From contig OZ237771.1 of NCBI GenBank assembly GCA_965178125.1, forward strand, positions 434,001 to 498,000: DNA of 64,000 nt. Direction: 5' to 3'. Position numbers and translations under genes: made by a program. Of the stretch, positions 2 through 64,000 are shown piece by piece. Every line of letters starts with the position of its first letter. Position 1 is the stretch's first letter. The notes beneath the pieces are model-generated. The model worked only from the letters and a program-made list of their open reading frames with translations. It was not told the origin of the DNA and did not search any database. Source of the DNA: Bilabrum cf. latius. Its lineage: Eukaryota.

Positions 2-1279
2 ATAGCGGTCCTGGCAGCCTCCCAATGCGTAGCTCTAAACAACGGCCTCGGCCACCTGCCCCCCATGGCGTACAGCACCTGGAATGCGTTTGGCCCTTGG
101 CTCAACCAGACGCAAATCCTATAGAACGCTGCAATCATCAAGAACCGCGGCCTGTACGAGGCGGGATACCGAGGCATTCACATCGACGAGGGGTGGATAG
201 CGAGCAACCGGTCGAAGGATGGCAAACTTGTGGTTGATCAGGCCAAATTTCCATCCGGGATGGAGAGCTTTGGTAAAAGTGTCAAATAGCTCGGATTTAA
301 GCTGGGATTGTACACCTCGAGAGGAACAGAGCAGTGCGGCGCGGCGAAGGGGTACCATGCCCCGGGTTCGCACGGCTTCGAGGAGCAGGACGTGTCTTAG
401 ATGGCGTCTTACGGGGCCACGTTCATCAAAGTCGATTCCTGCACGGGATCTTAGAACCACTCTCAGGCGTATGCCGACTATTCCAAGTTCAGAGACGCGA
501 TGGCAAAGCAGCCGCAGCCCATCTTTCACTCCCTCTGCGGATGGAACGAATGGTATACCCCCGTGGGGTATTCTCTCGGCAACTCGTGGCGGGTGGCAGG
601 CGACTGCAGCCAGTACGACCACTTCCTGAATGTGGTTGACGCCATGGCCGCCGCGGTGCAGTGGTCAGGGCCGGGGGGCTGGAACGACGCGGACTTGCTG
701 ATTACCGAGCACACGCCGGCTGTGGGCGGATTCGATGCTCCTCAGCAGAGCCGCCTTTAGTTCAGTCTGTACTGCGTGATGAGTGCGCCGCTGATTATAT
801 CCGTTGACCTCCGGCAGCAGACCGAGTACGCCTTCGAGACGTATTCCAACAAGGAGGCTATCGAAGTGAACCAGGACGACATCGCCAGGCCGGGGTTCCG
901 GTTATTGGGGGGTGACGTGGGGCCGTCGGTGGCAGGTGATGGTACTGCTAGGAAGAACTAGAACCAGCAGCGATCGGACCGGGTGCAGGTGCAGACTTAG
1001 GGTAGCACAAACATCTGGGCCAAGCCACTGGCCGATGGGTCCATCGCGATGGTGTTTGCCAACTTCGGGAACGGCTCGGGTGTGACGATTGAGTGCCCGC
1101 TGCAGGGGTGCCTGGACCAGCTGGGCATCGGAGCGGGGACCAGGGTGGCTGTCAGGGATCTGTGGGCTCACTCGGACAATGGAACGTTCGTCGGTCACGA
1201 GGGCCTGTCTGTGCGCGTGGAGGATCCAACTGCGGGAGTGATGGTGCGGCTGACACCGGAGTGGGCATACGTCCGGTGA
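2..1279 (+). CDS. GH27 alpha-galactosidase-like glycosidase, 5' partial, intronless in this window, 7 in-frame TAG (Gln)
   Basis: Frame +2 reads LNNGLGHLPPMAYSTWN, IHIDEGW, KFPSGM, GFKLGLY, FIKVDSC, SWRVAGD, GPGGWNDADLL, SAPLIISVDLR and NKEAIEVNQD. In-frame TAG at 122, 287, 398, 452, 758, 959 and 998; ends TGA 1277-1279. Confidence 0.93.
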
Positions 1280-1460
1280 GGGTGAGGGCGAACGTGTGGT
1301 CTACCATTGAATGGCGTGTTGTATGCTAGAAATGTGGTACGGGGCAGGCAGGCCAGCTGCACCCGGATGCAGATCCACCGGTTGACGATCGATCGGAGCA
1401 ATGCTCGTGAGGCATGCGATCCGTTCGGGCTGACTTGGGATAGTATACAAGCTTCTAACA

Positions 1461-2878
1461 ATGGAGCAATTCCAGAGGCGCACGCTCAGAGTCACTAGAT
1501 CAACAAGACCAGAAATGCTCCTCTCGCATACCCGGGTATCACTCATGGAACGAACCACAAAAGCAAGAAGGAAGAACCGAACAGACCGGCGAAGACCTGT
1601 ATACGACGGTAGCTTTGGCAAACCAAAATTTCTGGGTGCAGGTGATCCGTATGATCCCCCTAAAAGCTCAACTTAGTTTTTCAGCCGCCCAGGCTCAGCG
1701 CTTCGCGTGGGCCGGGCAGGGGCAGGTGCTCGATCGACCAGCAGCCTCCCGCGGGTGAGACTGCAACCCCCTGGATAATCACTCAGTTTCACATCATTTT
1801 TCCGTACTATTCGTCATGTACACAATGTGCTTGATTCCACACGGATCGCAGGGAACTCGGCCACTGTCTGCTTCGGGGACAGGCGGCAGGTATTCAGAGA
1901 GCAAGGGCCAGGAGCCAGGCGACCATGATGCTCGCCCGACCAGCCGAGCAAGTGCCGGTGCGCGCAGGCGGCCGCAAAGCGCCGGCCCTAGAGGTCGCCG
2001 GGGCTTCTGCACCGCCACTAAGTCGGGCTAGCTGTTTTCCGCTCCCGCTTACGACACGACTCCAGCAGATGTGGACGGGCTTGTGCGTGGTGAGCGGGGG
2101 ATGCTTGGCAGGCGCACGCGGCCGAGCTCTGCGCCCCGAGGTGGCAGGTTCGGAGGGACAGGCACCTCCTCCACGGGTGGTAGAGGAACAACGGGAGCAT
2201 CCAACGGCTTGTTCCCTCCCGTCCCAAGGCCAAGGAGTGCCATGGGTGGTGGCAGACGAGGGAGTGAGAGGAAACCGATCCATGAGAGGGTCGAGGAGAG
2301 GGCTAGGGCCGCTCGGATGAAGCACCAGAGAGGATTTGGCCCGGGGAGCGCGGTGGGGAAGGTGAGTCGATTGAGTTTCTGCTGCGTTCCGTGTCGATGT
2401 GCCTAGCATGCTGCGAGATACCCGACCCCACTCGGTGTAGTGACTTCGCGAGCGTTGCCAAGCGCATTGAATTCGACGTCGACCCGCCCTTTTCTGGCAT
2501 TGGCCACTACCGCAGGAGTTCACACCGGCCAGCAAGATGCTGCTGGGCGGGTAGGGAGGTAGAGACTGGGAGGCAGCGGCATAGCGGCCCCCGACCGCGA
2601 ATGAATACGCCAGGCGCAGGTACGGCGGCACTGCATCGAGAGAGGCCGCCGGGGAGCGATTGCTGCCGCTGGGCGAGGGAACAAGGAGGATACAGGCTAG
2701 GAGGATCGCAGCAGGGCACTTTTCGGGATTTCCCGGGCATGCCGAAGAGCCATACCAGGATGGGTTCAGGATCCATACGGCGTAGAAACCGGGTGCCACG
2801 GGGCTGCTGTCGTACGAGACCAAGACGAGAGCTGCCAGAGCTGGGCTGTCGATCAGGAGACGTGGGCGAAGAGTCTGA
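1461..2878 (+). CDS. Hypothetical basic protein, 3 exons (1461-1754, 1852-2361, 2516-2878); faint resemblance to CFAP96/C4orf47-like GDPY/EEPY motifs
   Basis: Phase-0 introns GTGAGA(1755)..CGCAG(1851) and GTGAGT(2362)..CGCAG(2515) join the frames, with TAG read through at 1674, 2029 and others. Ends TGA 2876-2878. The family call is weak. Confidence 0.6.
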
Positions 2879-3094
2879 TCGCGATCGCGATCGGTTTGGG
2901 TATAGTACATCTTGCCTGGCCCGTGTATCCTTTCCGGGATCCTGCACGGTGTCGCGCCGCGTTTGGCTTGCTTTCTTTTTGACCAGTATTTACGGTGTAA
3001 CTTTAGCTAATCAGACCTGAGCTAGACGTATATCACATCCATCCTAGATCTATGCTAGTGCAAGAGTGTAAAAATATGCAAATGCTTGCTGCAA

Positions 3095-5818
3095 TCATGT
3101 CCTTGCCATCTCAACCCTCAGCTGCCTTTGAGACTATCTCAATTTCCTAGCTGCACTCGGGTCCATAATCCCAGCCAGAGCCCCCCCTGACGCATCCCCG
3201 TCATCGAAAGCGGGCATGCCCCCGCTCATGCCCCCGCCTCGTGGGCCCATGCCATCCCCTCTACCCTCGCCAAGGCCGATGCCTCCAGCGCCCAGAGATC
3301 CGCTGGCACCACCTACCTCACCGCCCCACTCCTCATGCACCTCCACCAGGCTCCTGCGACTCATGCCGAACGTGGCGGGGTTGCGAGTCGATATCCTCGT
3401 GGACCCCGACCCCTGCCGACCCACGCTCCCCTGGGGGCCCCCACCCCCTGCTTGGGGACCCGAGCTAAAGGCCCAGTAAGCCCCAAACGCCACGGCTGCA
3501 AAAACCACCATGACCCCGGCCACTACGCCTCCAATGAGACCGGAGTTAGCCCCCTCAGGCTCCCCCTTGTTGTCTATGATCGGACCCCCCGTTGTGGGCA
3601 GTGGTGTGGGGGTCGTAGAGGGTGACCCCGTTGGCTCAGGGGATGGCAGGGGGGAGGATGTAGGGGACGGCTGGGCCCCTGCCTGAGTGGACATGACCAC
3701 CCCGGAGAGCTGCACGAGCCTACCGAACTGAGAGAGGGTCGGGTTGGGGTTGTCGGACAGTGGGGCGGCCCCAAATATCACCGTCATCCCGACGTCTCCC
3801 CGGTCGGGATCGTTCTTAAAGAACGTTCCTCGGCCTTCATCAAGGGCCGTCAGGTTCCCCAGGAGCCGAGCGGTGGTCTGGTTGGTTCCCGCCAGCACCG
3901 CCACGAAATCCGTCGGGCTCTCCCTTACATCCAGCCCAGTGTCGTCCAGGGTTATCACCACCTCGCCCTCGGTACTCGTCACACCGCTTCTGTGCTCTAC
4001 ACTCGTCACACTCGAAAGCACGTGGAAGTAGCACGTGCGGCCCGCCTCGTAATACCTCCTCTGCGCGAACGTATTAAACGGTGCTTGCCTCACACCCTGG
4101 CCGTCGCTGGCCGAGAGAACAATCGGGTGGCTCGCAGTTGCACCCCCTGGCAGGAAACCGCACAGGGAGAGCGCCCCCGACCTGTAGTAGAGCGAGTCCA
4201 GCCTCGCGCACATGATGGACCGAGGCCCGGTGCCCGGTGCAGCGGCAGGCACGACGGCAAGTCTGTCTCTGCACTGCTTGGACAGGAAAACCTCCCGGCC
4301 CGCCTGGCCGGGGAGACTGGCCCTGGCCTGGATGCACTGCGCGTTGTAGGTCGCACTCGTCACACCGACCCCCGCGATGGAGTCGTTCCCCGCGGCCCCC
4401 AGGGAAAGCGGGGGCAGCACCCCCTCCTGCTCCAGGGGACACCAGTACGCAGACGCGGGGCTCCCATCATCGCCGGACCCCCCTGCCCCATCCGGTCTGC
4501 TGGCGGCCACTGCCTGCTCCGGTGATCCGATCACGCTCCGTGGGAGGCACCGCTGCACCCCGTTGTCTGTGGACAGAGCCTCCCGTGGGACCGGGACCCG
4601 GTCTTGTATCTTGAGGGTGCGCTCGTAGGTGCCGTTCTTCGGCCACTCGCGCTGATGCTGTGACGAGTGCAGGGGCAACTCCGAGCCAGATTCTGAGTCC
4701 ATGAGTTCGGCTCCGAGTCCCGAAACGTTCACGGGCGGGGGGCAGTCGGGCGCGTCGATGCAAATGGGTGAGCACTGGTGCCCGATCACATTGAACCTGG
4801 GCTCCTGAAACCAGTTGGTAGGCTCGCTGGCCCCAGGCCACTGAAACACACCGTTGCAGAGATTCGTCCTGGCGTCCCTGGCCTGCTGGGCCGTGGGTGC
4901 ATCGAAGAGGTTGACCAGCTGCTGCTTGGCAGTGGGGGTCCATGTGCTCCCCTGCACGTCCCCCGCCGAGCAACTGCCCGGTGCTCGCCCGTCGGGGCCC
5001 ACGTACGCAGGGTCGTCGGCGGCCGCTGGCCTGGCGTTGTTGTCCGCGAATATGGTTGCAACCGCTGGGTCCTGCGCATCCACGCACGGTGTGACGAATC
5101 CACCCGACTGCACCACACCGCCCAGCTGGTCCGCACCTGCCGGAAAGGACCAAGGCGAGGAAACCAGAGTGCGGCCCGCGGGACATCTCCAGCGCCGCCA
5201 GAACACGTACAGAGTGCCAGACACTGCCCCCGTGCTGCCCTCGCCCCGACGCAGTACTCCGCACAGGTCGCTCTGCGGCCGCTCGCCCTCGGAATTTTCC
5301 GGGCGAGTGGCGGGCGGCGTGAAAGCGTCTGTCGCCGTGACTTCGCCGGGAACCACCGTGCTTCCAGAAGCAGACGCAACCGACGGAATGTCTGCAAATT
5401 GGAGCGTGGGAGTGGGATCCACTGAGCCGGTGGGGTCCGTGGGCTGCTCCCTTCCGTTTGATGCGTCATACGACGAGCAACCTGCCGACGTCGTCAGCGC
5501 GAGGCGGGAGGCGGCCGCTCCCAAGTCGGAATTAAATTGAAACACAATTACGTCGCGGGCGGGGTCTGCGCCGGGCTCCCCTACCCATCGGGCAGTGATG
5601 GACTCAGCAGACTCTGTCACGAATCCGACGTTGTCACCGCTTGGTATCTCAATTGCAATGCAGGGTGCGGTCGCAATGCGCTCTGACAAATCCGTGTTAA
5701 GTAATACCGTGTCCTAGGCGGTGCAATCCCGCGTGGTTATCTCCCCTAGTGCTGTTTTCAGAGTCCCAAGGCACGCTACTGCGGCGATGGCTGCCACACG
5801 GGCACTTCGCCGCGTCAT
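3095..5818 (-). CDS. Type I single-pass membrane protein (~907 aa): signal peptide, Cys-containing ectodomain, CUB-like domain, S/P/T stalk, TM helix
   Basis: Extending the 851-aa ORF through TAG 5714 gives ATG 5818 with MTRRSARVAAIAAVACLG, a signal peptide. YEAGRTCYFHV...VITLDD...DFVAVLAG is CUB-like. TM is LIGGVVAGVMVVFAAVAFGAYW. Reading through TAG 3134 reaches TGA 3095. Confidence 0.8.
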
Positions 5819-6159
5819 TGGTCAGTTGATATCGGCCACTCAACCCGCAAAGATGCACAGCACAATACGTAGTAACAGGGGTATGCTGTAATTCGGTAGG
5901 TTTGCAGCGCCTCCGTGGCACATCGCACCGGAACGGACGAACGAACGGTCGCACGAAGCCGAAACGGACGAACGAACCCCGCCGGCGAGGGAAGGTGGTC
6001 GCGCCAGAGGAATCCATCAGGTCAGAGCGTGCCTGAGTTATGATCGCAGCGGTGGAGACACACTACAAAGTCACACGATCCATTCAACAACAGCAAACCA
6101 TTGCAGTACAGACCAGGTACAGACTCGATTCAGCTCCAGCCCCATTCAATGCACTCTCC

Positions 6160-9100
6160 TCATGGGCTAGGGCTCGACGACACGGGTGCGCTCGAGGCAG
6201 CATCTGCCGAGAATCGATCGTCCCTCTACTGCCCCCCCGAGGCAGCACCAGCCTCTTCCGCCTCCTCCTCGTCTTCATCCTCACCCTCCGTCCTGGATTC
6301 CAGTATCCTAGGCAGCTGCTGCTGCTGCTAGAACAGCAGACCGCCGCTCGAGCCAGTCCCCGCCACACCCAGCGCAGATACCCCTCCAGCCCCACCTTCA
6401 CTCGTCACATCCCCAAGTCCCTCCATTTCTACACCCTCTCGCTCACCCCCCACCTGCACCTCCAGCGACCCTTGAGTCATCATTGGAACAGCCCCCACCG
6501 CACCATGCCCCTGCCCCTGATCCTGTCCATGCCCCTGTCCATGCCCCATCCCCACGGGCGGCACGCGGTCCATGATCACGTCGTGCCCCGCCTACCCCTC
6601 GCCATCCAAGTCATCGAAATCACCGCCGCCGCTGCTGCCAAAGCTCATCTGCCTTTCTGATCCGATCCCAAAGCTGTGGCTGTGGCCGGTGGACTCCACG
6701 GATCCGGGCAGTGGCCCCTCCTCTTGCTCCTGCACCTGCAGCACTTGACCTCGTTCCCGCTTCGATTCACCCCCCTCCTCCTCCCCCGAATGACCAACAC
6801 TCTCCTAATCGTGCCTACCGCCGCCAACTTGCCCCCCCCCTTGCCCCCCCCCTTCCTCCAAATCAGACCCGGCCCCCGTGGCAGTCCGGTGGCCCAGCAG
6901 CAGCTGGGTGTCCGACTCGACCAAGAGGGCCAAGCTCCCGCTCTCCTCCACCCCCCCCCCTGGATTCAACTGGAGCCGCCGATCGGATTCGGAGCTAGAT
7001 ATGCCGGATATCACCCCTCCTATTCCACCTCCCCCTCCCCCTCCGCCCCCCCACGCAGTGCGCAAAGACGAGGGCGGGCCCTCGGCATGCCCCTGTCCTT
7101 GTCCTTGTCCTTGCCCCGCCTCCCCATCCGACCCGGAGTCGAACGCAACCGCCCGCCTTCGAGGCCGATACCCGGTCTCGTCATCTCCACTCGTCACACG
7201 AGCTATTCCGGACGATGACGACCCCATGATGCTGTTCCCCCGGGACAGGAGCAGGCTGCTGTCTGCAGTGCCCTTCGACTCCAGAGGACCGCCGCCGCCC
7301 ACCGGTACAGCCACGAGCCCAGCAGTTGACCCCTACCCGGTCTAACCCATGGCACCGTCGCCCGCAGAGCCTAGGTTCCGCTGGAGCGCGCGGCGCCGGT
7401 CCACCGCGTCCCACCCGGAGCCTATTTCCGGCAGTGTGCCCATCTGCGTCTAGACTTGGATGATCTTGGTCATGTGCCTCGACCGGGTGCTGATCTGCTT
7501 GGGCTGTATCCTCCTGACCTGCAGAGTTGACATGTGACCCCCACCTCCCTTCCCCCCGTGACCCCCCGCTAGCACCCCCCCACCCCCCGACATCTTGGAG
7601 TCTCTCCTCAGCTTCTCCTGGTCCCTCACGTGCTGCAGCTCGAGCTCGAGCCTCTTCCTCTGCCTCATGGCATCCACCCGGATCAGTTCCTTCACGAACG
7701 CGGGGGAGGTTACCTGCAGCTCCTGGAGGTCGGCACGGGACATGACGAGCACGTCCAAAAAGTCAACGGCTCTGTAGTGGCAGTTCCGCTTGGACCCGTA
7801 AATCACCCCGTGCTGCCCGAAGAAGTCCCCCGGCCGCATCGTCATGAACACGTTGTTGTTGGTCCCACCGGGAAGGATCGCATCCACCCTCCCTCGCTTG
7901 ATGAAGTACAGGTGCTTGGACTCCTCGGACTGGCGAGCCACGAACTCGCCTGGTAGGAAAGTTGCGTGCCTCAGCCGCTGCACCATGCGGATGTACACGT
8001 CGGCCGGCATGAACTGCAGCACTGGGATCCTGTCAATGAGGTCTCTGTTCATGACGATCATGAGACGGGACCTCAGCGAATCGGGAAGGTCGGCGAACAC
8101 GTCCGCCTCCTTGTTGGGGGTTGACCACATGTGCTCGTAGAAATCGATGATGATCCTCTGAAAGAAGGAGGGGACCTTGCGAGACCGCATGAAGGCAGTG
8201 ACCTTGTCTAGCGTCTGCCTCCGCTGGGTCGCGGTGGAATCCATGTTGGCCAGAGCCGAGGACGCCGACCCGATGATCAAAGAGTACATCATGAGGCCCA
8301 CGATCACCATGGTGGTGGTGAAGCCCACCTCCAGCTGGGACCTGGGAATGATATCGTCCCCCACCCCCGTGGTGACCTCGACGGCCCAGAAGAGCGCCTG
8401 GCTGTACTGCTGGCTGTAGGGCCTGTGCGCGTAGGAGGCGTCAGGCACCCACTCGTCACGGTAAAAAGGGTCGAACCAATCAGGGTTTGTCCCGTTGAGT
8501 ATGACCTGCTCCTGGGTGTCGTCGTCGCAAATGCACAGGTTAATGTAGCACGACCTCCCAGGGTTGGGGGTCCCCTCCGGGCACTGGCCCAGACCGAGGT
8601 ACTCCTCCCTTGCTACAAACCAGTAGGCGCACCCGATATTGTGCCACATCATAAACATGATGGCAAAGGACCGCAGGAACCGGATCATGGATGGGTTGAA
8701 CTTGATGCTCGTCTCCAGCATCTGAAAGAGACGGGGAAAGAGCTTGAGCAGGCGGAGCATGCGGAATAGCTTGAACAGCCGCAGCATCTTGAAGAGTTTG
8801 TTGACACCACCCGTGCCAGTGGTGAACCAGCCGATGGGGAAGGACGCCAGCACGTCGATGGGGAACCAGAAAGAGAGGTAGTTCCCCGCGATCATCTGCC
8901 AGTCCGTGATGAGAATCCCATCGTCCTTGTACGCCGTCCTGAAATTGATGGCGATGTCCACCAAGAAGAGCACATCGGACACGATGTCGAACACCTCCTC
9001 CGACTGTGTCAGCTAAATGTCAAAGCCCAGCCGGTAGGGCACGCTGAATCCGAAGAAAATGACGAGCCCGAGCAGCAGTAGGTCCCAAGCCACCTTGAGA

Positions 9101-11153
9101 GTCGCCTCAGGGTGTATGATCAAAAAGGGAAGGTGCTCCTCGTCCTCGGCGACGTTCCTCTGCTCGGCATAGGCGTAAATGTCCGACTGTTCCTTGATGT
9201 ACGAGTCCATTGCCTTGGCCGCTGACATGGACATGGACCCGCTCGTGGCCCGCGCCAGCCGAGAGGACTTTTCGCTGCCGCCCAGCCCCCCTTTGCCCGA
9301 GGCGCTTCCGTCCGCCATGGCCGCTGCCTGCTGCTGGAGGGCCTCTCGCTGGAAGCGGTTGATGGTGACCAGGCGGTGGATCACGCTCTTGAACTTGGCG
9401 CGGGTCTCCTTGCTCGCACGGAACCTTCGCTGGCTGGTGCTCGCCGGTGGAGCGGGCGCTGTCCCGTTCTTGTCTAACCGCCGCTTGCTCCTCGTCCTGG
9501 TCGAGGACCGGCGACGGTTCTTGCTTTTTCTAGATGACAGGCTCCCGGTGATGGACGGGCTCTGCAGGGCCACGAGGCCGGCGTGCTCCTTTGCCTCTTG
9601 CATCATCCGTTTGCGCTCCTCCGCTTCAGACCCTGCTGCGATAGGTGCGGGCGTCAAAGAGTTGCTTCGTCCTCGAGATTTCTAGGAGGTCCGCTTAGAC
9701 TGTTTGCTAGCTCCATCTGCCTTAAACTAGACCCCAATCGGGCTCAGCTTGCCTTCACGCAGCAGCTGCTTGCGAGCCTCCTACAAGATGTGCGGATCAA
9801 CTGCGCCTGCTGAACGCCTGCGGCTTCGCTTTGGTTGCTTCTCCAACTGCTTCCTCAACTTGTTAGCGCGTCGCTTTCCAATGCCACGCTAGTTTTCGGT
9901 AGACACGGAAGAGCCGCGGGAGTTCTATGACCGCACCCGTCTGGACTTCGATCCACTGCGACCGCTCTCGCTCTCTCGGCCGGAGGGGTACTCGTGATCG
10001 CCCTCGCTTCCATTCTCATTGCGAAGTTTATCCTTGCCTGGATTTGTACCGCGGGAGCGGGACGGTGTTGCAGCATCAGGCGTCTCTTCGCCGCGCGAGC
10101 TTGACGGCGACCCTGAGTGAACGTTCGCCGAGTCGTGCGAACCGGTTCGGCTGCCTGCTCGGATCCCCACAGGCACCCCAGACGTGAAACTGCTTGAAGC
10201 GCGCTGTCCGTTCTGACGTTGCTGCTCCGCAGGGAACGGCCTGGGCATCTGGAAGGAGCGAGCGCCGGCACCTGCCCCCTGGAGCACCCCCGCCACCGCT
10301 GCTGCAGCCGCCTCCTCCTTGTCCTGCTTGCTCCTGAATTCGGGGTCCAGGGACGCTGATCTGGGAAACGCGATCCTTCCCCGGCCCGCTGCCTGCCCCC
10401 TCTTGGAGGAACCGATGGAGAAGGAGCCGTGGGCCGAACCAAGCCTGCCTTTCATGCCTCCCAGGCTGCGCTGCGAAGAAGATCGGACGTCTTTGCGGGA
10501 CGGACGGCGCTACATACCAAGGCCCGCCGCTTCCAGCCCCCCCACGGTGCCGAATGCCATGAGGGTGCGCATCTGGTGCTTGGCCATCAGCGTGAACTCG
10601 TCGACGACATCTGGATCCATCAAACTCCCCTCAAACGGGGTACTACAATAATATACCACTAACTTGTCGTTTGACTGTATTAAATCTGCGATAGGAATGT
10701 CCAGATGCTGGGTGGATGCGAATTGTGAAGTGAGCCAGCTCGGGTTGCACGCAGTCGGGCACGCGAGTCTAGCAGGTGGAGATACGGCTAGATTCCAGTA
10801 GCATATACAAAGACCCAGCTGCTCTAACCAGTTGAAGTAACTTCCTCGCCGTCCGGCAGAAGGTATACGTGGACGTCATCCCAATTAATGCTTGTTAACG
10901 GCACCTCATCACCAAACAGCTGCTTCATGAAGATGCCCTTTAAGGTCTTCCATCCTGCTGATAAAGAGACTATCGCCAATTTTCCAACACCCGGAGTTCC
11001 TTGTTGCAGGTGTTCGCCGAATCGGTAGAGCTTCAGCCGGATAGTGTCTCGCGAACGGTCATCTCGACCGGACTTTGGGGCACTATCGTCGTTCCCGGCA
11101 ATTAGGGAGTCGAAGGCCATCCGTTCCGCCGATAACATTAAATGAGTCGCCAT
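6160..11153 (-). CDS. Cyclic-nucleotide-binding-domain (KCNH/CNG/HCN-like) cation channel with N-terminal KHA-like domain; intron 10686-10828
   Basis: S1-S6 (IIHPE..WD, DIAINFRTAY, YLSFWFPIDVLASFP, S4 KMLRLFKLFRMLRLLKL), pore ALFWAVEVTTGVGDDIIP, C-linker and CNBD (LYFIKRGRV, GDFFGQ). ORFs 6328, 6805, 7450, 9013 and 9925 are one frame joined by TAG, ending TGA 6160. Splicing gives DGEEVTSTDLIQSNDKLVV (KHA-like). The start could be 11120 or 11153. Confidence 0.88.
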
Positions 11154-36176: not shown

Positions 36177-36211
<35 letters not shown>

Positions 36212-53266: not shown

Positions 53267-53491
53267 CGAGTGGCAGGCCGTCCGACGAGGCGTGCGGCAC
53301 TGAGCGTTGCAGATCTTAACTTCAGATTTGGCGCACCTGGATGCATGTGCTTTTCGTCTTGCAATCAGATTCGCGCTAGGATTTGGCTGCAGCCACTTGC
53401 TTCCGCTAGACTGCCGTCTTTCCTTCCAATTCAACATGCTAGCCATGCCGGCCCAATGCGCGAACGCAGATGCACCACCGATACCACCCAC

Positions 53492-54673
53492 TCACTGCTT
53501 GCGCCTGCTGCCTGCCTTCTCCGCCTCCTCCTGCGCCTGCTGCCGGCCCAGCCTCAGGTCCAGCTCGGCCTGGGCGCGGCTATGCTGGGAGAAGGCTGCC
53601 CCGATGACGAGTGCGATCGCTGCCACGATCACGCCCCAGTAGGGCCACAGCTTGCCCGTGGCGCGGACCATCTCGTCACTCGTCATCACGCGGACCCTGC
53701 CCCCGGATGACGAGTGCGCCAGCACGGCCGTGTCCTCCCCTCCGGCACTCGCCTCCTCCTTCACGTCGTACCATACCTCGGCCCTCTGAGGCTCCATCCA
53801 CCCGTCAGCGAGGGGGGTGATCTCCACGGAGGCGGTGGAGAGGGCGCGGGGCTCCAGGGCCGGCCAGGTGATCTTGAGGGAGCCGTTGCAGAACACGTGG
53901 ATGGTGGAGCCGTCTGCCTCCACCGGGTCGAAGCCCTCTTTGCCCCCGTCGCACTGGGAGTATGGCACGCCTACGGGGGTCACCTGGAAGCTGTCCGGGC
54001 TGAAAGTGTCGTTGAGCTCGATGCGGAAGGCCTTGGACACCCCGATGTTGGTGATTTCATACGAGACCTTGTTGGGGCGCTTGGCGGGAATCACAACGTA
54101 CATGGAATCGGGGAGCTCGATGCGCTGCGTATCGCAGGAGGGGGGGCAGGAGCACGTATCGAATGGATGGGGCGCAGTTGTGCTATCTCGCGATGTCCTG
54201 CTGATGAACACAGCTGAGAGGCTGACACAAGTAGCCGGCATCGACAGGACCGAGCGCTGTGGAGGTTCACCCGTGTGACACGCCACACAACCAAAACATC
54301 GTTCACCAATAGTTATTTACATAGTAACGTAACACATTGTAAGTAGATGGTATGGATGCGCGGACTGCATGTGCCAAACGGCACCGCGACATCCACGTTG
54401 TCGCGAACCAGCGAGCTGGTGCGTTTGTCTCACCTTTTCAACACTGAGCCACGGGCGGTTATCGATATCAAATGCTTCCTCTGCTGATACCTCAGCGGCC
54501 GGCACATCCTCGTCTTCTGCCTCCAATTCATCCTCGCCATAGAGCTCGTCCTCGCCGTCAACGAATCCCCCATCTGCACCAACCTCGATGTCATCGGCGA
54601 ATGCGCAGGAAGACATGATTGCAAGCATGCCCATGCTAGATGCCAAAGCCATCATTGTGCTTCTGGCAATCAT
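53492..54673 (-). CDS. SSR2: Translocon-associated protein subunit beta; intron 54125-54433
   Basis: Signal peptide and acidic stretch, then VSYEITNIGVSKAFRIELNDTFSPDSF, GSLKITWPALEP, AHSSSGG and TM YWGVIVAAIALVIG, following the TRAP-beta pattern; ends TGA. Confidence 0.8.
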
Positions 54674-56289
54674 GCCCGCCGAAAAATAGACTGAAGTACG
54701 CTCTCCGGATCCGTCGAATGTAACGGAACAATACACAATTTACTGGTTTTTGCCGGTTCCGGATCAGCAATTTGCGCGGCGCCCAGATAATTCGGAGAAG
54801 AAATCATGATGCAATTCGATTCAGCGCGCTCTTGCGAGTCTGCTGGTGCGCCTTTCAACTCAATACGATGAGATTAAGTCTGTTAACATGCCATTCAAAG
54901 AATTGGCCTCTAGCAGGGAGCTGCAGCTTTGCGCGGCGCCAAAACTGTGTGATTAGTGTCGCACGACACCCCGACACTGCCCGGATACCCCTTTCTAGTC
55001 TACAAAATAGACCTAAAAATATACCTGTATGATAATGATGCTAAATTATACGCTGCTGTGCAGACGAATGTCTGAATAAGATTCATTTGGACACGACAGG
55101 GTCCACGGTCATCCCTCTGGCAGCCGCAACAAACTTGCTTCGATTGGCCCTCTGAGATACTGAATTTGATTACACTCCTCATAATTCTGAGCAAATTGAT
55201 GACTTTATTCAAATAACGCGCTCATATTCTGCTGTGCGGTTCATGAGTAGGGTGTTTCCCGTGAGGATGACTGAACCAGGCCGCAGAGTTAGCTATTGCA
55301 CATTTACCTCACCAATCTGCAGCTTACCGCGAATTGAGACCAACCACTACATTTTTTGTATTGATCGTATTCAGAAAATCGAACAGGAGGCTACTATGGC
55401 CATCATTAGGACCCGAGCAGCACCAGCAGCTGTGCGGGTGGCCAGATCCAGAAGACCTGAAGTACGCCATGCTATTCTACACCATTGGGACTGAAAATCC
55501 GTACACTGCCTTTTATTAGGTATATTAATACCATGATTAGTCTCAAACTAGTACTGGCCTCATAGATTTGACACAATTGTGTTCTGAATGGTACCAAACC
55601 ACTGGAAACAGCCACAACTTGCGAAATTGTAGGACCTGTACAAATACAGTACCATACACAAACAAATCGTATGTATAAATAAACTATAAGTGTATCAGGA
55701 CAGTGGTGAATTGGATTCTGCCCAAAATGAATCGAGATCTGACGTCAAATGAGACCATCCTCGGTTCTAATGGACTCTCTGTGACATACTGGAGCGGTGA
55801 TTTGTTTTAAATACCTATTTGATCTGTAATGAAGTCGACCAATAGCGCATTCTATTCGTCGAAATGATTGCACAATAGGGATGCAGCGTGGACTGTGGTT
55901 TCAGTGGCATTTGAATCAGCGTGCTGCTCCTCTCGTTAGCCTTACGGTGGTTGTATGGTAATTCACTAATTACACAATGAAAAAACCTCATTACATGGAA
56001 GATACGCTATTGATGTCGCGTGATAATCGACGAGTTGTATTGTGTCGGGGATCGTTGCGGTCAAGAATTGGTGTGATGAATGTGTCGGGGTAAGTTACAA
56101 CCGACGGATCGCCCGATGGTGTTTGTGAGGTGCCGTTATTGGACGATCCGGTGGAAATACACATTTTGAAGCAAATTCGAATCGGGGCATCCCTGCGATC
56201 ATAGTGAGGTTGTTAGCTTTAACCCAAGTTACGTCGTCGCATTAGTATGTAGTGACCTATTGCTCGCCCTACGATCCACATTTGTGAAG

Positions 56290-59200
56290 ATGGAAGACTT
56301 CAGGCGCCGAGCCGGAACTGCACCGAATTCTGAACTGCAAGCGCAAAGTGGCATTGGCAGCTTGGGCCGAGCAGGATCTGCGGGGGGTCTCCGGGATGGC
56401 ATTCGAGAGACTGGTCTTGGTGGTGACAGCATGGCGCACAGCGGTGATTTTGCCGGGCGAGGGGCTCCATTCCCGCCGGACGAGCAGCCGATGACTCTGG
56501 CTCGCAACACTGCTCGGCTTGTGAATGGCGGCGACAGACCGATCCGAACTCCTGTGCGAGCGCGCGGCAGTGCGGTGCATCTCGGCGCGGTGCAGTCTAT
56601 GACTGAATCCCGCGGCGACAGTCGATCTGGCGCACGTGCTGCCACTGCACTGGCCGGTAGTCCAACAGCAGGAAACGACGAGTTAAGGGCAAGCAGCTCC
56701 GGTGCAAAGCATCGTGCTGTCCTGGACCAGGTAGCAAGGGCCGTGCGGGCCCGAGCGGGCGCCCCTGTGGAGCCTCCTGCTGGACCACACCCACACCCAC
56801 ACCCACACCCACGAGAGGAGACCCAGGCCAACTAGGCAGGGCAAGCAATGGCAGGCGGCTCTGCTGGCTGGAACAACGATGGTACCACACATGCTGCATC
56901 ACCTCAGGTGTCTTCCTCTTCCTCCCCCTCCCCCGCCTCTGCCTCTGCTCCACTGGGCTCCCCTTCCAAGCTGGCCCAGCTCAGCTTCGAGGACGCTCGG
57001 AGGGTGCGGAGGGAGGCGGCGAGGGCCGTGAGAGGTGTGACGAGTGAGGGGGGGCGGGCCAGCGCGGGGGACGCAGAGGAGCTGGGCGGCGGGGATGCAC
57101 CTCAGGCTGCTGTTGCCAGTGCCGGTGCCGGTGCCGGTGCAGCGGCGGGCCGGCCCGGGGGCCCTGAGCCTCAGCAGCGGCACTCGAGGCAGCAGCGCCG
57201 CGCATTTGCCGGTTCCGCAGGCCTGGCGGTGGAGCGCGGCACCTCCCGGGGTGGCGGGTCCCGTCTCCTCCGTCCGCCCACTCGTCAGTCGGAGCCGTTC
57301 CCCGTGCATCTAACGGGGCGGATCAGCCGAACCAAGGGCTGGGCCGACACGGGGCAGATGCCTCACGGTGCCAGAACGATCGGAGACGAGGCGGTAGGCG
57401 AGAGGAGGAGGGGAGGAGGGGGAGCGGGCAGCGGGAGGCTGGGACGCATGAGGGCGGGGCCAGTGCGCGCCACCGGGGACGCCGTGCCAATTATTGAAGA
57501 TGAAGATGAGGAGCTGGAAGTGGAGGATGGGGGACGTGGTGGCGTTGGTGGTGAGGGGGAGGAAGAAGAGGAAGAGGAAGAGGACCGTGCTCTGGAGGAG
57601 CACTTTATGGGATCTGTCCATGCGCGGGTCGGGGGAGGGGCAGGTGGTGTGGAAATGGGCTTGGTTGAAGATGAAGAGAATGGGGGCTTGGAGGCGTCGT
57701 ACCGAGGCAACCTGAAGGACCTTGAAGATGAAGATGAAGACCAGCAAGGGGATGGGGCCTTGCAGAGTACAAGAAAGGATGCATCGCATGCAGGTGCAGC
57801 GAGGCCCAGCACCAGCAGATCCACGCTGCAGAGGCCTGGCTCGGCAGGTATGGGCGGGTCCGGTGTGACGAGTGGCTGGGGCCGGCCCCCATCGGCCAGG
57901 GGCAGGCGGGAGAGGGCCGCTGTGGCTGCACTGCGCGCGCAGGCGGCCAAGGCGGCTGGTCTGGTACTGGGGCGGGAAAGCGAGGGGGGTGTGGGTGCGG
58001 GGGAGGGGGAGGGGGAGCGCACCATCGGTATGACGAGTGGGAAACCGGGGACCCGGGGGGAATATATCATCCGCCACAGGCACAGATCAGGTTCAGGGTC
58101 AGGGTCAGGGTCGGGGACAGAGGTGAAGAGGAGCTCTGGTCTCGGAGACGATGCCCGTGCTCTGGGGTCGAGAGGGGGGGGCGAAGGGGGGAGTCTGCAG
58201 TGGATGCAGGTGCCCAGCGACGACTCGGAGCCTGAATTAGGCGCGGGTGGGGGTGAGGACCAGGAGCGACCCAGGGCTGCAGGGGGCAGCAGCAGGCGGG
58301 GTCGGGCGGGTCCCGGGGAGGCGGGGGACAGAGACAGCGGTGCGGCGGCCGATGGCCATGAGGGTGGGCAATTCGGTCTGCTAGAGGCGCCGCGCAATAT
58401 TGGTTCCGCTGACGAGTTCGGTCCCGTTGAGCCGTCGGCGGCGGGGTCCGGAGGGGCATCAGCGGGTGAGGCGGGGGACGGATTCGGAGCGATTAGTGTG
58501 ACGTTCCACGTGCCGATTCAGGTGACGGGCGGAGATGGCGACGAGGATAGTGTGACGAGTGGAGCCAAGAGGAAGAAGAAGCGCGGCCGTAGGACCCGCG
58601 GGGATACCAGGACCAGGACCAGGACCAGGACCAAGGGAAAGGGAAAGGGAAAGGGAAAGGGTAAGGGCAGGCGGAAGGGGCACGGGCAGGGCAAGAGCAG
58701 GGGCGGAAGGAAGGCACAGGAACCAGGGACAAGTGCATTGCATGACGGCACAGATCGCGTGGGCACAGCAGAAACAGCGGATAGCGGAGACGTCGTTGTG
58801 GATGCATCGCACGATGGTGCGCCTGTGACCCCGCAGGTGCGCGTCCGTCGCATCCGGGCGGCTGCGGCTGCGGCTCTGGGCAGCGGTGATGTGGATGGTG
58901 ACGAGGACGGGGGGATCGGCCGCGGCTGGGCCGGGCTTGCCCCGGATGGAAGCGAGGGCCAGTAGGAGAGTGTAGGTCTTTCCCACGGGTAGGGGGGGCG
59001 CGGGAGTGGTGGTCGCGGCAGCAGCAGCCTTCGTGTGAGCGAGTGGGAGGATGATGACGAGTGCGGCGGTGGTGCCTCCAGCGGCGGCAGGCGGCGAGGG
59101 GGGGGCAGCGGCCTGCACTCGTCACAGTCTTCCATCCCGGAAGTGGAGGCGCCGCGCATGGACCAGCAGCAGCATCGGCAGCAGCATCTGGAGGGGCATC

Positions 59201-59884
59201 AGGAGGGGCATCAGGAGGGGCTGTCCACTGGCCTGGACCGTGATTTCTTGAAGCTGTTTGCGTGGGGTGGAGGCGAGGGCGATGAAAGCGTCGATGGAGG
59301 GGGGGAGGGAAGCAGCGAGGGGGAGGACGGGGAGAGCGTAAGCGACGGGGAAGATGGGAGTAGGAGCAGCGGCGGGGGAGGGGGCAGCAGTGACGCGAGT
59401 GGAAACAGTGGCACATCACCTTCGTAGCGCATTGATGCATCTGCAGCTGCGGGGCCGGGCGGGCGCGGCAGATCCCCAGGCGGCGAAAAGGCGCCGCATC
59501 GCAGGGCCAACAGCTGGGGATGGGATTCGGAGCCCAAATTGACCGGCACGCCCGGCACTGGAGAAGGGACCAATGTGCAAGGGGGTGGCGACAACGCGGC
59601 GCAAGGCAAGCAGCGGCGGCGGCCCCTGCCCGTAGATGCATCGCACGGTGGTGCCCCGCACCCGGGACCATCACCATCTGGGTCCGTCACTGGGTCCACC
59701 GGTGGATCGGCTGATCGGAGACGCCACCACCAGGGAGTCGGCGGCAGAGGTGTCCCATAGGGGGTGGGTGGGAGCGTCTGGAGCCCCAGCTCAGCGCATG
59801 ATGCACCGTTCGGTGGTGGAATGGCACAGGGAAATGCCATGCAGGGAAATGCCATGCAGGGAAATGCCATGCAGGGAAATGCCA

Positions 59885-59915
<31 letters not shown>

Positions 59916-61278
59916 GCAGGGGCAGGGATAGGGTAGCGGGATTGGCAGGCCGTCGCCTGGCACCCAGGCCACCAGCCCGACCATGGTGTCGCCCTCGTCA
60001 CACCACTCTCACTCGTCACACGCATAGAGGCAATCGCCACGGGGTACCAGGGAGGGTGTCCAGGGTGCATTGCACGGCCGCGGTGCCACCAGATCACCGC
60101 GCGTCTCCGACAGGGGAACACCGCGCTCGTCACACCAGCACCGCTCCCCTCACTCGTCATCCCCTTACTGGCAGCCGAGCGCCTCTGGCTCCAGCAAGCC
60201 AGCTGCAGCCGGGGCTGGATCCCGTTCTCAACCCAGGGGGGCGGGGGCGGGGGTGGGGGGAGGCAGGAGACATGGGAGCAGTGGTTCCGCAGGCAGGGAC
60301 GCGCGCGGCGCCTCCAAGCCTCGGCGTACCCCCTCCTCCGCGGGCTCGTCCTCCCGCCAGCGTGACCCGCAGTCGTTGCACTCGAGTCAGAAGACGCGCA
60401 CCACCGGCACCGGCAGGGGGAGCGGAAGGGGGAGGGGGAGGGTTCGGCCGGCCTCGAGGGAACCTTCCCAGGCGCAGCTGGACCGTGTGGCAGCGGCCAT
60501 GGGAGCCACCGTGATGGCGGGGGGGGCCGGGTCACCCTCCCTCAGGGGATAGGTGGGGTCACGGGGGTCCAGGCGGGGGGGCGGGATGGGGTCACGGGAG
60601 AGGGAGAGGGATCTTCATCTTCAGGATTCGGACGGGGGGGTCAGTGGCGCGGCGCATCGAAGGTACAGGCAGCGGCAGGGGAGTGTGGGGTCTAACCGGA
60701 GTTTTAGTGTTTCCGGCGACGAGCAGGGGGGTGGGCCTAGTAGCAGGGGGGGGACAAGCCCGCGCAGGCAGGGGCAGGGGCTGCAGCGGCTCCGGACTCC
60801 TCTTGTTCCCTGGCGGCCAAGCGGCAGTGCGGGAAGCGTGGGGTCCGGGGGCCTGGCGAGCGATGGAGCAGGGATGGGGCACGGGTTTGTGGAAGTGCCG
60901 GCTACTGGGGCTGGGGCTGGGGCTGGGGCTGGGGCTGGGGGTGGGTTGTCCGGGGGGGGCGGTGGAAGGAGGGGGAGGGGGGAGGGGCGATCGAGGGAGA
61001 GGGGTGCCTCGCGCGGGGGGACATCGGCGGGAGGTGCTGCTGTGTGGGTGGTCGGCGGGAGCGGGGGGGGAGGGGGTCAGGGCACATCGGCTAGGGGGGG
61101 GGCATCGCGGGGGGGCGTCGGGATGAACCTGGGGGCCGGTGTGACGAGCGAGGGGAGCCGCGGGTCATCCTCGAGGAACGATCGGAGAGGAGCATCTCGG
61201 CAGGGGTCTAGGGGTGGTGTGACGAGTGCAGCGAAATCGTCACTGGCAGGTCTGTACGGCGGGACTGGGTTTTACTGA
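56290..61278 (+). CDS. Hypothetical ~1,660-aa G/S/R/E-rich, probably disordered protein, intronless
   Basis: ORFs 56260, 56848, 59035, 59539, 60070 and 60553 are one frame separated only by TAG; ends TGA 61276-61278. No recognisable domain. Confidence 0.72.
59827..59931 (+). repeat. Coding tandem repeat (CAGGGAAATGCCATG)x4 followed by (CAGGGR)n ending in TAG
   Basis: Directly visible; encodes (QGNAM)4(QG)n. Confidence 0.9.
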
Positions 61279-61364: not shown

Positions 61365-63027
61365 TCACGCCTGCTTCAGCCACTGAACCGCCTGCTGCAC
61401 CGCGGCCCGTCTCGCCTGCGCCACCGCGGGAGGCAGGTACCCGTCCGGCGCACTCGTCATATCGGAGCAGTGCCACCCACCGGAGATTAGTACCGCAGGC
61501 GGTTGCAACCCGTTCGAAGTATCACCGAAACCCCGACCCTGGCCTTGCCCTTCACCCCGCCAGTGGTTCAACAGCTGCCCCCCCCCTCTAGCCAGCCTCT
61601 ACCACGGGAGTAAGCAAGGTATACGGGTCCGCTGATCCCCCCAGCCACAGCACTCTCCCGCCGGAACCGTTCGTGGGCCGGTTCCCACCAGAGAAAGTCA
61701 AAATGTCCCGCTGCCGGGAGGCCTGCTGCGCACTCGTCACACCCAGCACCCCGCCGCAGACGTCCCCGAAGAGCAGCTCGGCAGGCGTGGGACCCCCGTC
61801 CGCTGCGTATGGGCAGGTGGAGGGGTCTGAGCACGTGTTGAGGAAACCGACTGCACTGCACTGCAACCATGTATACTGCCGGCCCCAGTCAGCCGGGTCA
61901 CTCGTCACACCCGTGATCCCGTCCAGGTACTGCTCCCACGTGGAGTAGGGCGTGCACTCGGCCGGTGGGAGGGGGTCTCCCTGCAGGCTCCAGAGGGCGC
62001 GATCCACGGCGTGCAGGGGGTCCAATCCACCGGCGGATCCGTTTTGCATGGCCTTGCAGAGGTAAGGCACGATGAAGCCGCGGCTGGACTGCACTGCCTG
62101 GAATCCTAGAGTGATGTCGACTGCTGCTCTCCATGCGCTTGCCGCGTCTTTCTGGGACATGCTCTCACTCGTCACACCGTCACCTTGCGGACAGAGCCGC
62201 AGTGCGTCCAGCAGCTTGAGCCAGTCGGCTGGGTCCGACGATGTGACGAGTGCAGAGGCTTGCCGTAGGCCTGGCAGCAGCACGTCCTCTGCGATGCCGG
62301 GGCAGCCCCCCGCGGCAGTGTCCCCCATGGCCCCCTGCAGACCCTGGTGGTACCTGGGGAACAACGCGTCCAGCTGCACAGGAGCAGATGAAGCGATGAC
62401 TCCGGCTAGACGGCTAGGGACCGGCGCGGGGAGGCCGGGGAGGAGGCGGCTGTCTGCGTCCAGCGCGGCTAGGCTTGCGACAATGCCGCTGTAAGAGCAT
62501 CCAAGCCCCACCCATCGAGATTAGGGGGTGATCCCGTGGAGCACTGGCGATGCACTGCCGGCATTGGCTGCGTCGCTCGCCCAATCGATAAAGCGAGCAA
62601 CGTCGAGCGAGGCTTGGGCAGGATCCAACGTCGCATTCATGGAATCAATAGTCAGGCTTCCTGAAGCCCCGTACGGCCTGGACTTCCCAAAGAATCTGTG
62701 CTCCAGCAGGATCATGGCTGCGCCAGCAGATTTTGCGGTGCGCGCGGCCTGTCCGATCAGTATTCCCCACCACTCTTCGGCCTCGTTCTCGCCCCCAACA
62801 AGCAGCACAACCGGTACAGGAGTCCCTGCTAAGTGCTTTGATGGAGCCACGAAGCTAGAGTTTACAAAAAAACGCTGTGACCACATGTTGTTTGCGGACG
62901 CTGATTCTCGATGATCAATAAGCTGGCCATGGAAATATCGCTCCTCGTAGGGCAAGGCAGCCCGTGTGAGCTGCACTGAGATACACATCAATGATACACA
63001 TCCAAGCGGAAAGAAAAATTTCTACAT
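61365..63027 (-). pseudogene. Serine peptidase family S28 (prolylcarboxypeptidase/TSSP-like) with in-frame TAA (62521) and a 1-nt frameshift in a C9 run (61578-61586); pseudogene or sequence errors
   Basis: Signal peptide M(TAG)KFFFPLGC..., QLIDH, WSQRFFVN, VLLVGGE, LEHRFFGKSRP, QASLDVARFI, WVGLGCSYSG, IASSAPV, RQYTWLQC and GSADPY. ISGGWHCSDM...AR...QWL lies in a shifted frame ending TGA 61365. Confidence 0.75.
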
Positions 63028-63195
63028 TGCCGAGATAGTCTAATGAAGGTCCCAAACTCAAAGTCTGCAGCCAAGACTCGGCCAGCATTTCCGGATCCTT
63101 TCGAGTTGGTCTTGCACGGCAGCGGGTCATGCATCAATATTAGCCTTGCAACAGACCCCACTGCGCCAATACTAAGAATAGCAGCGCCAAAACCT

Positions 63196-64000
63196 TCACC
63201 CTTGTTCCCCAATGGTAGGCAGCTGCAGCGTGGCCCGTGTGGGCGGCCCCAGCAGAGCCACCTTGCGGCCAAATGTGCCGGCCTTCGCCCCGATCTTGCC
63301 CGAGCCCCCCTGGCCCCCCCACCTCGATTCGCCCTATTCCCCCGCGTCCTTTCCCTCCCCACCGTGACTGCTCCCATTCTTGCTCCCCCGTCGCGCCGCA
63401 GTGCCGTGCACAAAGGCCTGCACATACCCCTTCATCGCCTCACGCGCCACCGCCGCCACACCCCTCCCCCTGCCCCTCCCCCTGCCAGACCTCGACGCCC
63501 CCCCACTACCCCCCTTCTTCCTCTGGGCCCGCCGGCCCGCCGCAGCCAGCTGCCTCGCCCTCCTGCTCAGCGCCTCCCCCTCGCTCAATCCACCGGTGGA
63601 CAGGTCCCGCCCGGGCATCACCCCCGTGCGCCGCGCCTCCCGTCTCAGCCGCAGCATGGCATCGCTCGCCTCAGAGGGGGGGGGAGGACCCCCCCAAGGG
63701 CGGGAGAATGACACCGGGACTAGCAAGTTTGGGCCAGACGCACTCGTCACACTTGATGATCCCCTGGTACCCGCATGTGCGCTGTTTCGATCCTTGGCCC
63801 CCTTGCCTTTGATCCGATCCCTGGCTGCCTTCTTCTTGGCGCGGGTCATCATCGACACTTGGCGGTTGGCCGCCCATCGAGCGGCGGGCCCCGGGACCGT
63901 GTGACGAGTGCGCTGACCCTCACTAAGTTTCCCCCCTGTCCCCGCCTCTTCTTGCGACTACTTCGACGATGACGATGACGACGCTGGCCTGCTCCTTCCA
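63196..64000 (-). CDS. 3' end of a hypothetical low-complexity basic protein (5' part outside the window)
   Basis: The frame of ORF 63334..63858 is open to the window edge with TAG at 63958 and 63334 read through; ends TGA 63196-63198. Confidence 0.6.

Follow-up and report, generated by a model that had tools for sequence, protein, structure and literature searches.

Does TAG still end translation in the genome represented by positions 434,001 to 498,000 of contig OZ237771.1 (assembly GCA_965178125.1, Bilabrum cf. latius), or has it become a codon for an amino acid, and if so, for which one? An earlier note on this stretch of 64,000 nucleotides, to which we refer as the window, had proposed that the nuclear code is non-standard and that TAG is read as glutamine (Gln). 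The lengths of open reading frames (ORFs), contigs that behave like transcripts, conserved protein columns and the sequence context of TAG all support that proposal. In the explanation that we favour, UAG would have passed from stop to sense codon, read as Gln, in the nuclear genome of a GC-rich eukaryote with short GT..AG introns; UGA would be the main stop, and UAA would also terminate. We put the probability of the joint claim, a nuclear code with UAG as Gln and with UAA and UGA as stops (NCBI table 15 type), at roughly 0.85. The G+C content ranges from 56 to 69% along the 64 kb (about 62%), and there is no N in the window.

TAG within reading frames and in intron-skipping contigs

We compared the ORFs of the window under the standard code with those obtained when each stop in turn is treated as sense. 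Treating TAG as sense lengthened the longest stop-to-stop ORF from the 2577 nt of the standard code to 10668 nt; sense TAA left it at 2577 nt, and sense TGA brought it to 4026 nt. ORFs of at least 900 codons numbered 0 under the standard code, and 9, 0 and 5 when TAG, TAA or TGA, respectively, was treated as sense. TGA triplets are 2-3 times commoner than TAG in the window. Our coding set consisted of 14 ORFs with 15,141 codons, delimited by TAA and TGA only. The reading frame of these ORFs holds 83 TAG, 0 TAA and 0 TGA, the two zeros arising because the ORFs were defined by those stops. The two off-frames hold 95 and 79 TAG, 26 and 36 TAA, and 234 and 253 TGA. TAG is about as common in the reading frame as outside it, and nearly all long genes contain it in frame; at the off-frame rates of TAA and TGA, ORFs of 1000-3556 codons could not arise by chance. 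Moreover, Pfam domains run across TAGs in the GH27, ion channel, PIH1 and MND1 genes. One such gene lies at the start of the window:

2 to 1279, plus strand: GH27 alpha-galactosidase gene 1; 5' end clipped by the window edge; TGA at 1277-1279.
122, 287, 398, 452, 758, 959 and 998 (first bases), plus strand: the seven in-frame TAGs in the translation of GH27 gene 1.

The earlier note had counted seven in-frame TAGs in this gene, and ORF 2-1276 contains exactly 7. It matches Pfam Melibiase_2 (7.4e-38) and Melibiase_C, with the catalytic domain matched from profile position 32/284 to its end and followed by the C-terminal sandwich. The match to the solved plant enzyme PDB 6f4c (E = 4.7e-55) crosses all 7 TAGs.

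We searched public runs with one 10-kb stretch of the window, and compared four runs (X1, X5, X6 and X8) with the window over positions 1-20000. X5 and X6 come from one study and X8 from a second, both different from the study of X1. The contigs from these four runs of three studies, X1 included, are identical to the window base for base, with no other letters. X1 behaves as DNA, being collinear with the window except for contig breaks at repeats and lacking every one of the intron joints; the window was probably derived from it. The X5, X6 and X8 contigs skip 12 listed segments of 83-154 nt, the ends of which are GT..AG or CT..AC, with splice sites of the form GTGAG or GTAAG ... CAG. We infer from the skipped introns that these contigs represent RNA; no run with this stretch is recorded as RNA, and the automated run type, which is a guess, labels X5 as 'probably DNA', and this speaks against us.

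Retention of TAG in mRNA was a point that the earlier note had proposed to confirm, and the pieces and joints of X5, X6 and X8 cover 18 in-frame TAGs, all of them unchanged: 758, 959 and 998 in GH27 gene 1, five in the gene at 1465-2986, the TAG at 5716, seven in the channel gene, and 17568 and 17949 in MND1. The X5 pieces 579-1315 (GH27) and 3265-5896 match the window, and the X5 channel contig, which covers 7585-10685 and is spliced to 10829, has 7 TAGs and 0 other letters. TAG 17949 lies within a triply spliced MND1 contig; TAG 17568 was counted from joint 17597>17688 alone, the two sides of which are 54 and 37 letters long.

These contigs bear on the possibility that the TAGs are never translated, and instead reflect sequencing or assembly error, C-to-T damage, pseudogene mutation, RNA editing or unrecognised introns. 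TAG is indeed one transition away from CAG, and often occurs in CAG-rich repeats. However, random damage or decay would also yield TGA (from CGA) and TAA (from CAA), and there are 0 of either against 83 TAG in 15,141 codons; ORFs stay open for up to 3556 codons; and the four runs agree base for base. Because contigs that skip introns keep the TAGs unchanged, editing, splicing-out and assembly error are each very unlikely, with the proviso that these are not raw reads but contigs, in which minor edited forms may remain undetected. Overall, we find an untranslated TAG scarcely credible, and regard it as practically certain that TAG is a sense codon.

The genes and ORFs in which the other TAGs lie are as follows:

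1465 to 2986, plus strand: gene without known family; two GT..AG introns (1753>1851 and 2359>2514); 386 open codons when spliced; 5 TAGs; X5 contig.
3098 to 5821, minus strand: ORF of 908 codons; signal-peptide-like start at ATG 5818; TAGs at codons 36 and 896; TGA end.
6163 to 10875, minus strand: cyclic-nucleotide-binding cation/potassium channel ORF of 1571 codons; 14 TAGs; intron 10686-10828; TGA end.
11364 to 14129, minus strand: coiled-coil, low-complexity ORF of 922 codons; 5 TAGs; TAA end.
17526 to 18421, plus strand: MND1 gene of 205 codons; 3 introns in the coding sequence; TAGs at 17568-17570 and 17949-17951; TGA stop at 18419.
20647 to 31314, plus strand: giant ORF of 3556 codons; 23 TAGs, 0 TAA and 0 TGA inside; TGA end.
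31415 to 35424, plus strand: LMF1 (lipase-maturation-factor) gene; ORFs 31415-32419 (4 TAGs) and 32125-35421 (3 TAGs); Pfam LMF1 and LMF1_C.
35755 to 40260, minus strand: ORF of 1502 codons; 8 TAGs, including 40162-40164; G-patch-like at best.
44525 to 47680, plus strand: PIH1-domain ORF of 1052 codons; 4 TAGs; Pfam PIH1 at 1.3e-20.
49667 to 53263, plus strand: ORF of 1199 codons; 8 TAGs; final TGA within a copy of a repeated 12-mer.
56170 to 61275, plus strand: low-complexity ORF of 1702 codons; 8 TAGs, including (CAG GGR)n TAG GGT at 59929.

The channel ORF matches Pfam Ion_trans (3.8e-17) and cNMP_binding (5.3e-11), as well as CNG and HCN channels in the PDB (6e-40). MND1 matches Pfam Mnd1 (5e-16) and LZ3wCH (8.9e-9), with spliced contigs in X5 and X6. 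We found no PDB match for the PIH1 region, and no Pfam family for the spliced translation of the gene at 1465-2986. The giant ORF is partly conserved in two proteins, P0249 (54% identity) and P0250 (44%). Eukaryotic genes lie close together in the window, and several of the very long low-complexity ORFs lack a Pfam family; a flavoprotein of the PPC-decarboxylase type is also present. Just downstream of MND1, positions 18560-18900 on the plus strand weakly resemble TMEM230/134 (E = 0.00089, below the Pfam cut-off) and include a confirmed intron, 18637>18731. We found no match to an Rfam family within the 64-kb window.

TAGs are spread unevenly over these genes. GH27 gene 1 has 7 in 425 codons (2-1276), and the count is zero in the Pirin main exon (16487-17344), in the last exon of GH27 gene 2 (43293-43928) and in TRAP-beta, as would be the case if some conserved or highly expressed genes avoided TAG. 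The three genes concerned are:

16064 to 17347, plus strand: Pirin gene; Pfam Pirin and Pirin_C; 3 introns confirmed by X5 and X6 joints; TGA end.
42300 to 43931, plus strand: GH27 gene 2; several exons; Pfam Melibiase_2; CAG at 43536-43538.
53495 to 54316: TRAP-beta; no TAG.

TAGs also cluster with one another, with 10 TAG neighbours within 2 codons on either side against 1.8 expected. Most clusters are TAG-GGN-TAG, TAG-GCC-TAG, TAG-GAA-TAG or TAG-TAG (23203/23209, 24736/24742, 26779/26785, 27412/27418, 34048/34051 and, on the minus strand, 7344/7335), and the first two of these forms are the pattern of the Gln-Gly and Gln-Ala repeats that are frequent here.

The amino acid at TAG

We next asked which residue homologous proteins carry opposite TAG. 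At E<=1e-10, GH27 gene 1 has 155 homologs, of which we used the best 120; none of these is more than 44% identical to it. The column counts that follow refer to the 40 closest of the 120. The earlier note had placed TAG 758-760 at the Gln of a GH27 motif, and column 253, which corresponds to this TAG, is Gln in 37/40, Met in 3/40 and Ser in 0/40 sequences. In GH27 gene 2, the same column is occupied by a regular Gln codon, CAG 43536-43538. Column 151 (TAG 452) is Gln in 23/40 and Ser in 2/40 sequences, and column 41 (TAG 122) is Asn in 14/40 and Gln in 3/40. Tabulation of TAG columns against homologs, another step that the earlier note had recommended, thus gave Gln as the best reading, with the qualification that GH27 gene 1 alone was tabulated.

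To combine the columns, we used HMMER profiles. Profiles without entropy flattening (--enone), built from 20, 40 or 120 homologs, gave Gln a posterior of 0.989-0.998; the runner-up, at 0.001-0.005, was Ser in two profiles and Asn in the third. Applied to ordinary codons, this procedure identifies 33-35 of 37-38 correctly. As a control for specificity, we repeated the call on randomly drawn sets of equally many columns, taken in GH27 gene 1 from the codons of one other amino acid at a time. For the 19 other amino acids the outcome was Gln in 0/500 draws, except for Gly in one profile (2/500), and sets of true Gln columns gave Gln in 125-219 of 500 draws.

Independent of the profiles, a close relative of the gene has been deposited. 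P0242, a protein of 96 amino acids, is 94% identical by BLASTP to residues 330-425 of GH27 gene 1 and has Gln opposite TAG 998-1000. Its ORF begins just upstream of this TAG site, as expected if an earlier TAG had halted a standard-code gene caller. A search with 1200 residues of the giant ORF (13 TAGs) returned two matches, P0249 and P0250, and neither alignment crosses a TAG.

The surroundings of TAG are consistent with Gln. The earlier note had described a Gln-rich context, and we counted 24 Gln within 2 codons on either side of TAG against 13.0 expected, an enrichment of 1.84-fold (p=0.003) that compares with 1.92-fold around CAA and 2.29-fold around CAG. Other residues show ratios around TAG of 0.88 (Ser), 1.12 (Glu), 1.07 (Lys) and 1.08 (Leu), whereas the real codons for Ser, Glu and Lys are mostly self-enriched 1.4- to 3.4-fold, with the exception of AGT (0.81-fold). 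At 59929, a (CAG GGR)n run continues into TAG GGT, and the frame remains open for about 450 codons beyond. A likelihood based on neighbour profiles over all residues did not discriminate among them (Gly -906.0, Gln -910.3, Arg -910.4). Because context may partly reflect the mutational origin of TAG from CAG rather than its meaning, we give most weight to the columns and to the near-identical relative.

Several more specific claims of the earlier note concern individual TAGs. The TAGs or TAG-bearing runs that it had located at 758-760, 40162-40164 (minus strand), 6316-6330 (minus strand; TAG-CAG-CAG-CAG-CAG), 23287-23298 (CAG-CAA-TAG-CAA), 17568-17570 and 59929-59934 are all where it had put them. 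Two further Gln-like runs, CAG-TAG-CAG at 44541-44549 and TAG-TAG-CAA at 14114-14122 (minus strand), exist as triplets, but their frames lie off the long ORFs and they were not counted as coding. TAG 40162-40164 had been aligned to the protein TFIP11; the coordinate is right, but the identification is not significant. ORF 35755-40260 has no Pfam family at E<=0.01, and in the PDB it matches TFIP11 at E=1.2 only, in an alignment that covers the G-patch-like part but misses the TAG; its N-terminus has no significant PDB match. Read-through of TAG had also been credited with restoring gene starts. This is the case for the MND1 N-terminus and for the signal-peptide-like start at ATG 5818, but the start cited as ATG 63027 does not exist: positions 63027-63029 read TTG, and the nearest ATG (63044-63046) is in a different frame from ORF 62970-63809.

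Not all observations favour Gln, and the following weigh against it. The informative conserved columns come from one gene only (GH27 gene 1, 5-6 columns), and two of them are not Gln-like: column 96 (TAG 287) is Ser in 14/40 sequences, and at column 133 (TAG 398) 19 of the 40 have Trp, 14 have Thr and 3 have Leu. The single TAG column of the channel in a PDB alignment, located in a variable loop, has Leu or Glu. With default HMMER entropy weighting, Gln still ranks first, but at a posterior of only 0.25-0.39, and Glu, Ser, Lys and Ala retain 0.10-0.18 each; these profiles are undecided because they are too flat. We detected no tRNA genes within the 64-kb window, and hence no cognate tRNA-Gln with anticodon CUA there, and eRF1 and rRNA genes are likewise absent from the window.

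Some of these observations would suit a TAG that encodes another residue, such as Ser, as in Scotinosphaerales, Leu, as in the rhizarian exLh, or Glu, Lys or Tyr. Column 333 leans towards Gly or Ser, and weak hints of an archaeplastid affinity (the TRAP-beta neighbours and the Pirin tree, described below) matter here, as TAG=Ser is reported for a green-algal order (PMC8271138). On the other hand, Ser leads in just 1 of the 5-6 TAG columns and is absent or nearly so from columns 253 and 151; its unflattened posterior is 0.001-0.005, with Leu, Glu and others lower still; and true Ser, Leu, Glu, Lys and Tyr column subsets were called Gln in 0/500 draws. The 94%-identical P0242 has Gln at the TAG 998 site, and there is no enrichment of Ser, Glu, Lys or Leu beside TAG. 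We therefore consider a residue other than Gln highly unlikely, and conclude that TAG very probably means Gln.

TAA, TGA and the ends of genes

The terminal stops of the 14 ORFs are 12 TGA and 2 TAA. This bias towards TGA, together with a codon usage of 96 CAA to 499 CAG, would be compatible with a code in which TAA and TAG both specify Gln (NCBI table 6, used by most ciliates and several ulvophyte orders), with sense TAA kept scarce by the high G+C content. However, with 83 TAG in frame, the CAA:CAG ratio predicts about 16 sense TAA, and we observed 0; ORFs of 3556, 1702, 1571 and 1502 codons hold none. Reading TAA as sense gains nothing in the longest ORF (2577 nt) or in the number of ORFs of at least 900 codons. 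We also scored every stop triplet for coding-like, stop-free flanks on both sides. This was the case for 24/731 TAG, 0/390 TAA and 0/1520 TGA triplets, and if TAA passed as often as TAG, about 4-5 would have been expected. The scoring model had been trained on these very ORFs, which makes the test circular in part. The evidence on TAA as a stop comes from 64 kb and just 2 ORFs with a TAA end. We judge a code with both TAA and TAG as Gln to be most improbable, and are confident that TAA and TGA are still stops.

A further possibility is that TAG is Gln within genes and yet, as in Condylostoma or karyorelict ciliates, ends some of them in a context-dependent manner. In three ORFs, a TAG lies 3, 5 and 13 codons ahead of the terminal TGA or TAA, whereas about 0.9 cases within 12 codons would be expected for 14 ORFs at 0.55% TAG per codon; TAG could accordingly terminate in some contexts, which tells against an unconditional sense codon. 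However, none of the 14 ORFs requires TAG as its end, and the five genes whose C-terminus can be set by homologs or domains, namely both GH27 genes, Pirin, MND1 and TRAP-beta, end in TGA. The base after in-frame TAG (n=83) is G in 43, C in 19, A in 16 and T in 5 cases, which is the ordinary first-base distribution. We consider a context-dependent TAG unlikely.

By analogy with other lineages in which UAG is Gln, UAG would be decoded by a tRNA-Gln with anticodon CUA, and eRF1 may be expected to lack UAG recognition.

Repeats, lineage and comparison with known codes

The window is rich in a repeated word. There are 43 exact copies of the 12-mer GTGTGACGAGTG, whereas 100 shuffles give an expectation of 0.00. 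Its density is about 1 copy per 1.5 kb, mostly within genes, and it is retained in the RNA-like contigs. Examples are:

4000 to 4011, minus strand: 12-mer copy.
13070 to 13081, minus strand: 12-mer copy.
13091 to 13102, minus strand: 12-mer copy.
30776 to 30787, plus strand: 12-mer copy.
46224 to 46235, plus strand: 12-mer copy.
57035 to 57046, plus strand: 12-mer copy.

The 8-mer core of GTGTGACGAGTG occurs 65 times, and its flanks are not conserved. Inside 16 ORFs that span 74% of the window lie 50 of the 53 copies of the 10-mer core: 32 in sense orientation and 18 in antisense. Of the sense copies, 26 are read as Val-Thr-Ser and 6 fall in the second frame; the frame that would yield TGA has 0. 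The antisense 12-mer copy at 25244-25255 falls in a gapless alignment to P0249 (49% identity over the stretch), and is therefore not an insertion. At the end of ORF 49667-53263, the terminal TGA lies inside the 12-mer copy 53261-53272, in the frame that gives a stop, and there is an in-frame TAG 5 codons upstream. These statistics resemble those of bacterial uptake sequences, here in a eukaryote. A literature search for the 12-mer returned chance primer matches only, and the word is not known to have a published counterpart in eukaryotes. We also scanned prokaryote genomes and viral contigs for pairs of copies within 1-31 bases of each other. The 27 loci found (L002-L028; 25 prokaryotic, 2 viral) include some with 11-21 core copies per 5-8 kb (L002, L013 and L016). 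We rejected them as members of the same lineage: their G+C content varies (0.33-0.74) and they have long standard-code ORFs, indicating unrelated local repeats. Separately, 300 nt are directly repeated at 97% identity (14146-14445 and 15313-15612, 1167 nt from start to start). X1 contigs fragment at this repeat (14146-15612), which may be an end pair resembling long terminal repeats or a local duplication.

The Pirin exon has one close relative, P0122, at 75% identity; its remaining matches are at most 46% identical and are distributed across many eukaryotic groups. In a quick Pirin tree, the window and the 75% relative were joined with a support of 1.0, and the pair fell in a small clade with a red alga (0.90) adjoining streptophytes (0.34), with a further support value of 0.83. 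The nearest Atlas clusters of TRAP-beta are mostly Chlorophyta, and those of the channel are mixed. The tree and the TRAP-beta neighbours each give a weak hint of an affinity with Archaeplastida. A metagenome scan with the Pirin exon yielded a single locus, L001, at 37% identity, and did not recover the 75% relative. The stretch is present in runs labelled with four different organism codes, and the organism may therefore travel as a passenger in samples of other organisms.

Changes to the nuclear code are rare, and those in which UAG changes and UAA is kept are rarer; such cases bear on how far the two codons are mechanistically separable. If our reading is true, the window adds a GC-rich, TGA-terminating, intron-bearing case with a mutational background unlike that of the AT-rich ciliates and metamonads. 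It also has a practical consequence: standard-code gene calling shatters these genes, so that annotation requires a code with TAG as Gln, and public protein sets hold just the fragment P0242, which starts after a TAG.

Reassignment of UAG alone was first demonstrated in Iotanema spirale, as Gln, and in a rhizarian, as Leu (PMC5304391). UAG-only Gln has also been reported for Protocruzia and twice in phyllopharyngean ciliates, and for ulvophytes, Hexamita, Streblomastix and an aphelid both UAA and UAG are given as Gln (PMC11687900). The earlier note was right to name Iotanema as a precedent for UAG-only Gln, but missed the later reports on Protocruzia and the phyllopharyngean ciliates, as well as Scotinosphaera with its reported TAG=Ser (PMC11687900, PMC8271138). 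Our literature search, of limited coverage, found no other GC-rich non-ciliate with UAG-only Gln. As the type of code is known from Iotanema and some ciliates, novelty may lie in the lineage: tentatively, and with less than even confidence, we suggest a further independent origin of a UAG-only Gln code in a poorly sampled, GC-rich, intron-bearing lineage outside the ciliates.

Two known systems share the codon and differ in the residue. The rhizarian exLh also has UAG alone reassigned, and was first noticed as a passenger in another organism's runs, but its UAG is reported to be Leu (PMC5304391); in the window, the posterior for Leu is essentially nil and there is no enrichment of Leu in the context of TAG. 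Scotinosphaera sp. is reported to share the TAG-only change, TAA and TGA stops and an apparently GC-rich coding background, but to read TAG as Ser (PMC8271138), whereas the columns, the near-identical relative and the context in the window point to Gln. The Scotinosphaera claim draws on actin, GPI and many orthogroups, in which TAG is reported to occupy Ser (TCC/TCG) positions (PMC8271138), and if the organism behind the window is a green alga of scotinosphaeralean type, the published TAG=Ser for that order needs re-examination. Ulvophyceans (Dasycladales, Cladophorales, Trentepohliales and Blastophysa) combine a change from stop to Gln with TGA as a working stop, but are described as reading TAA as Gln too (PMC11687900, PMC8271138), and TAA in the window is not sense-like.

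The closest matches in code are Iotanema and the ciliates named above. In Protocruzia tuzeti and two phyllopharyngean lineages, the same codon is reported to have gained the same residue with UAA as a stop (PMC11687900), and these cases show that a change of UAG alone to Gln has recurred. In comparison with those ciliates, the window is 64 kb of contiguous, gene-dense, GC-rich DNA with genes of up to 10.7 kb. Iotanema spirale (Fornicata) has UAG alone reassigned to Gln with UAA and UGA as stops, and the reported evidence is of the same type as ours, namely in-frame UAG in transcripts and conserved columns dominated by Gln (PMC5304391). It differs in its main stop, which is reported to be UAA (104/119 transcripts; PMC5304391), against TGA in 12/14 ORFs here. 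Furthermore, the window is GC-rich and has GT..AG introns, and nothing ties it to metamonads.

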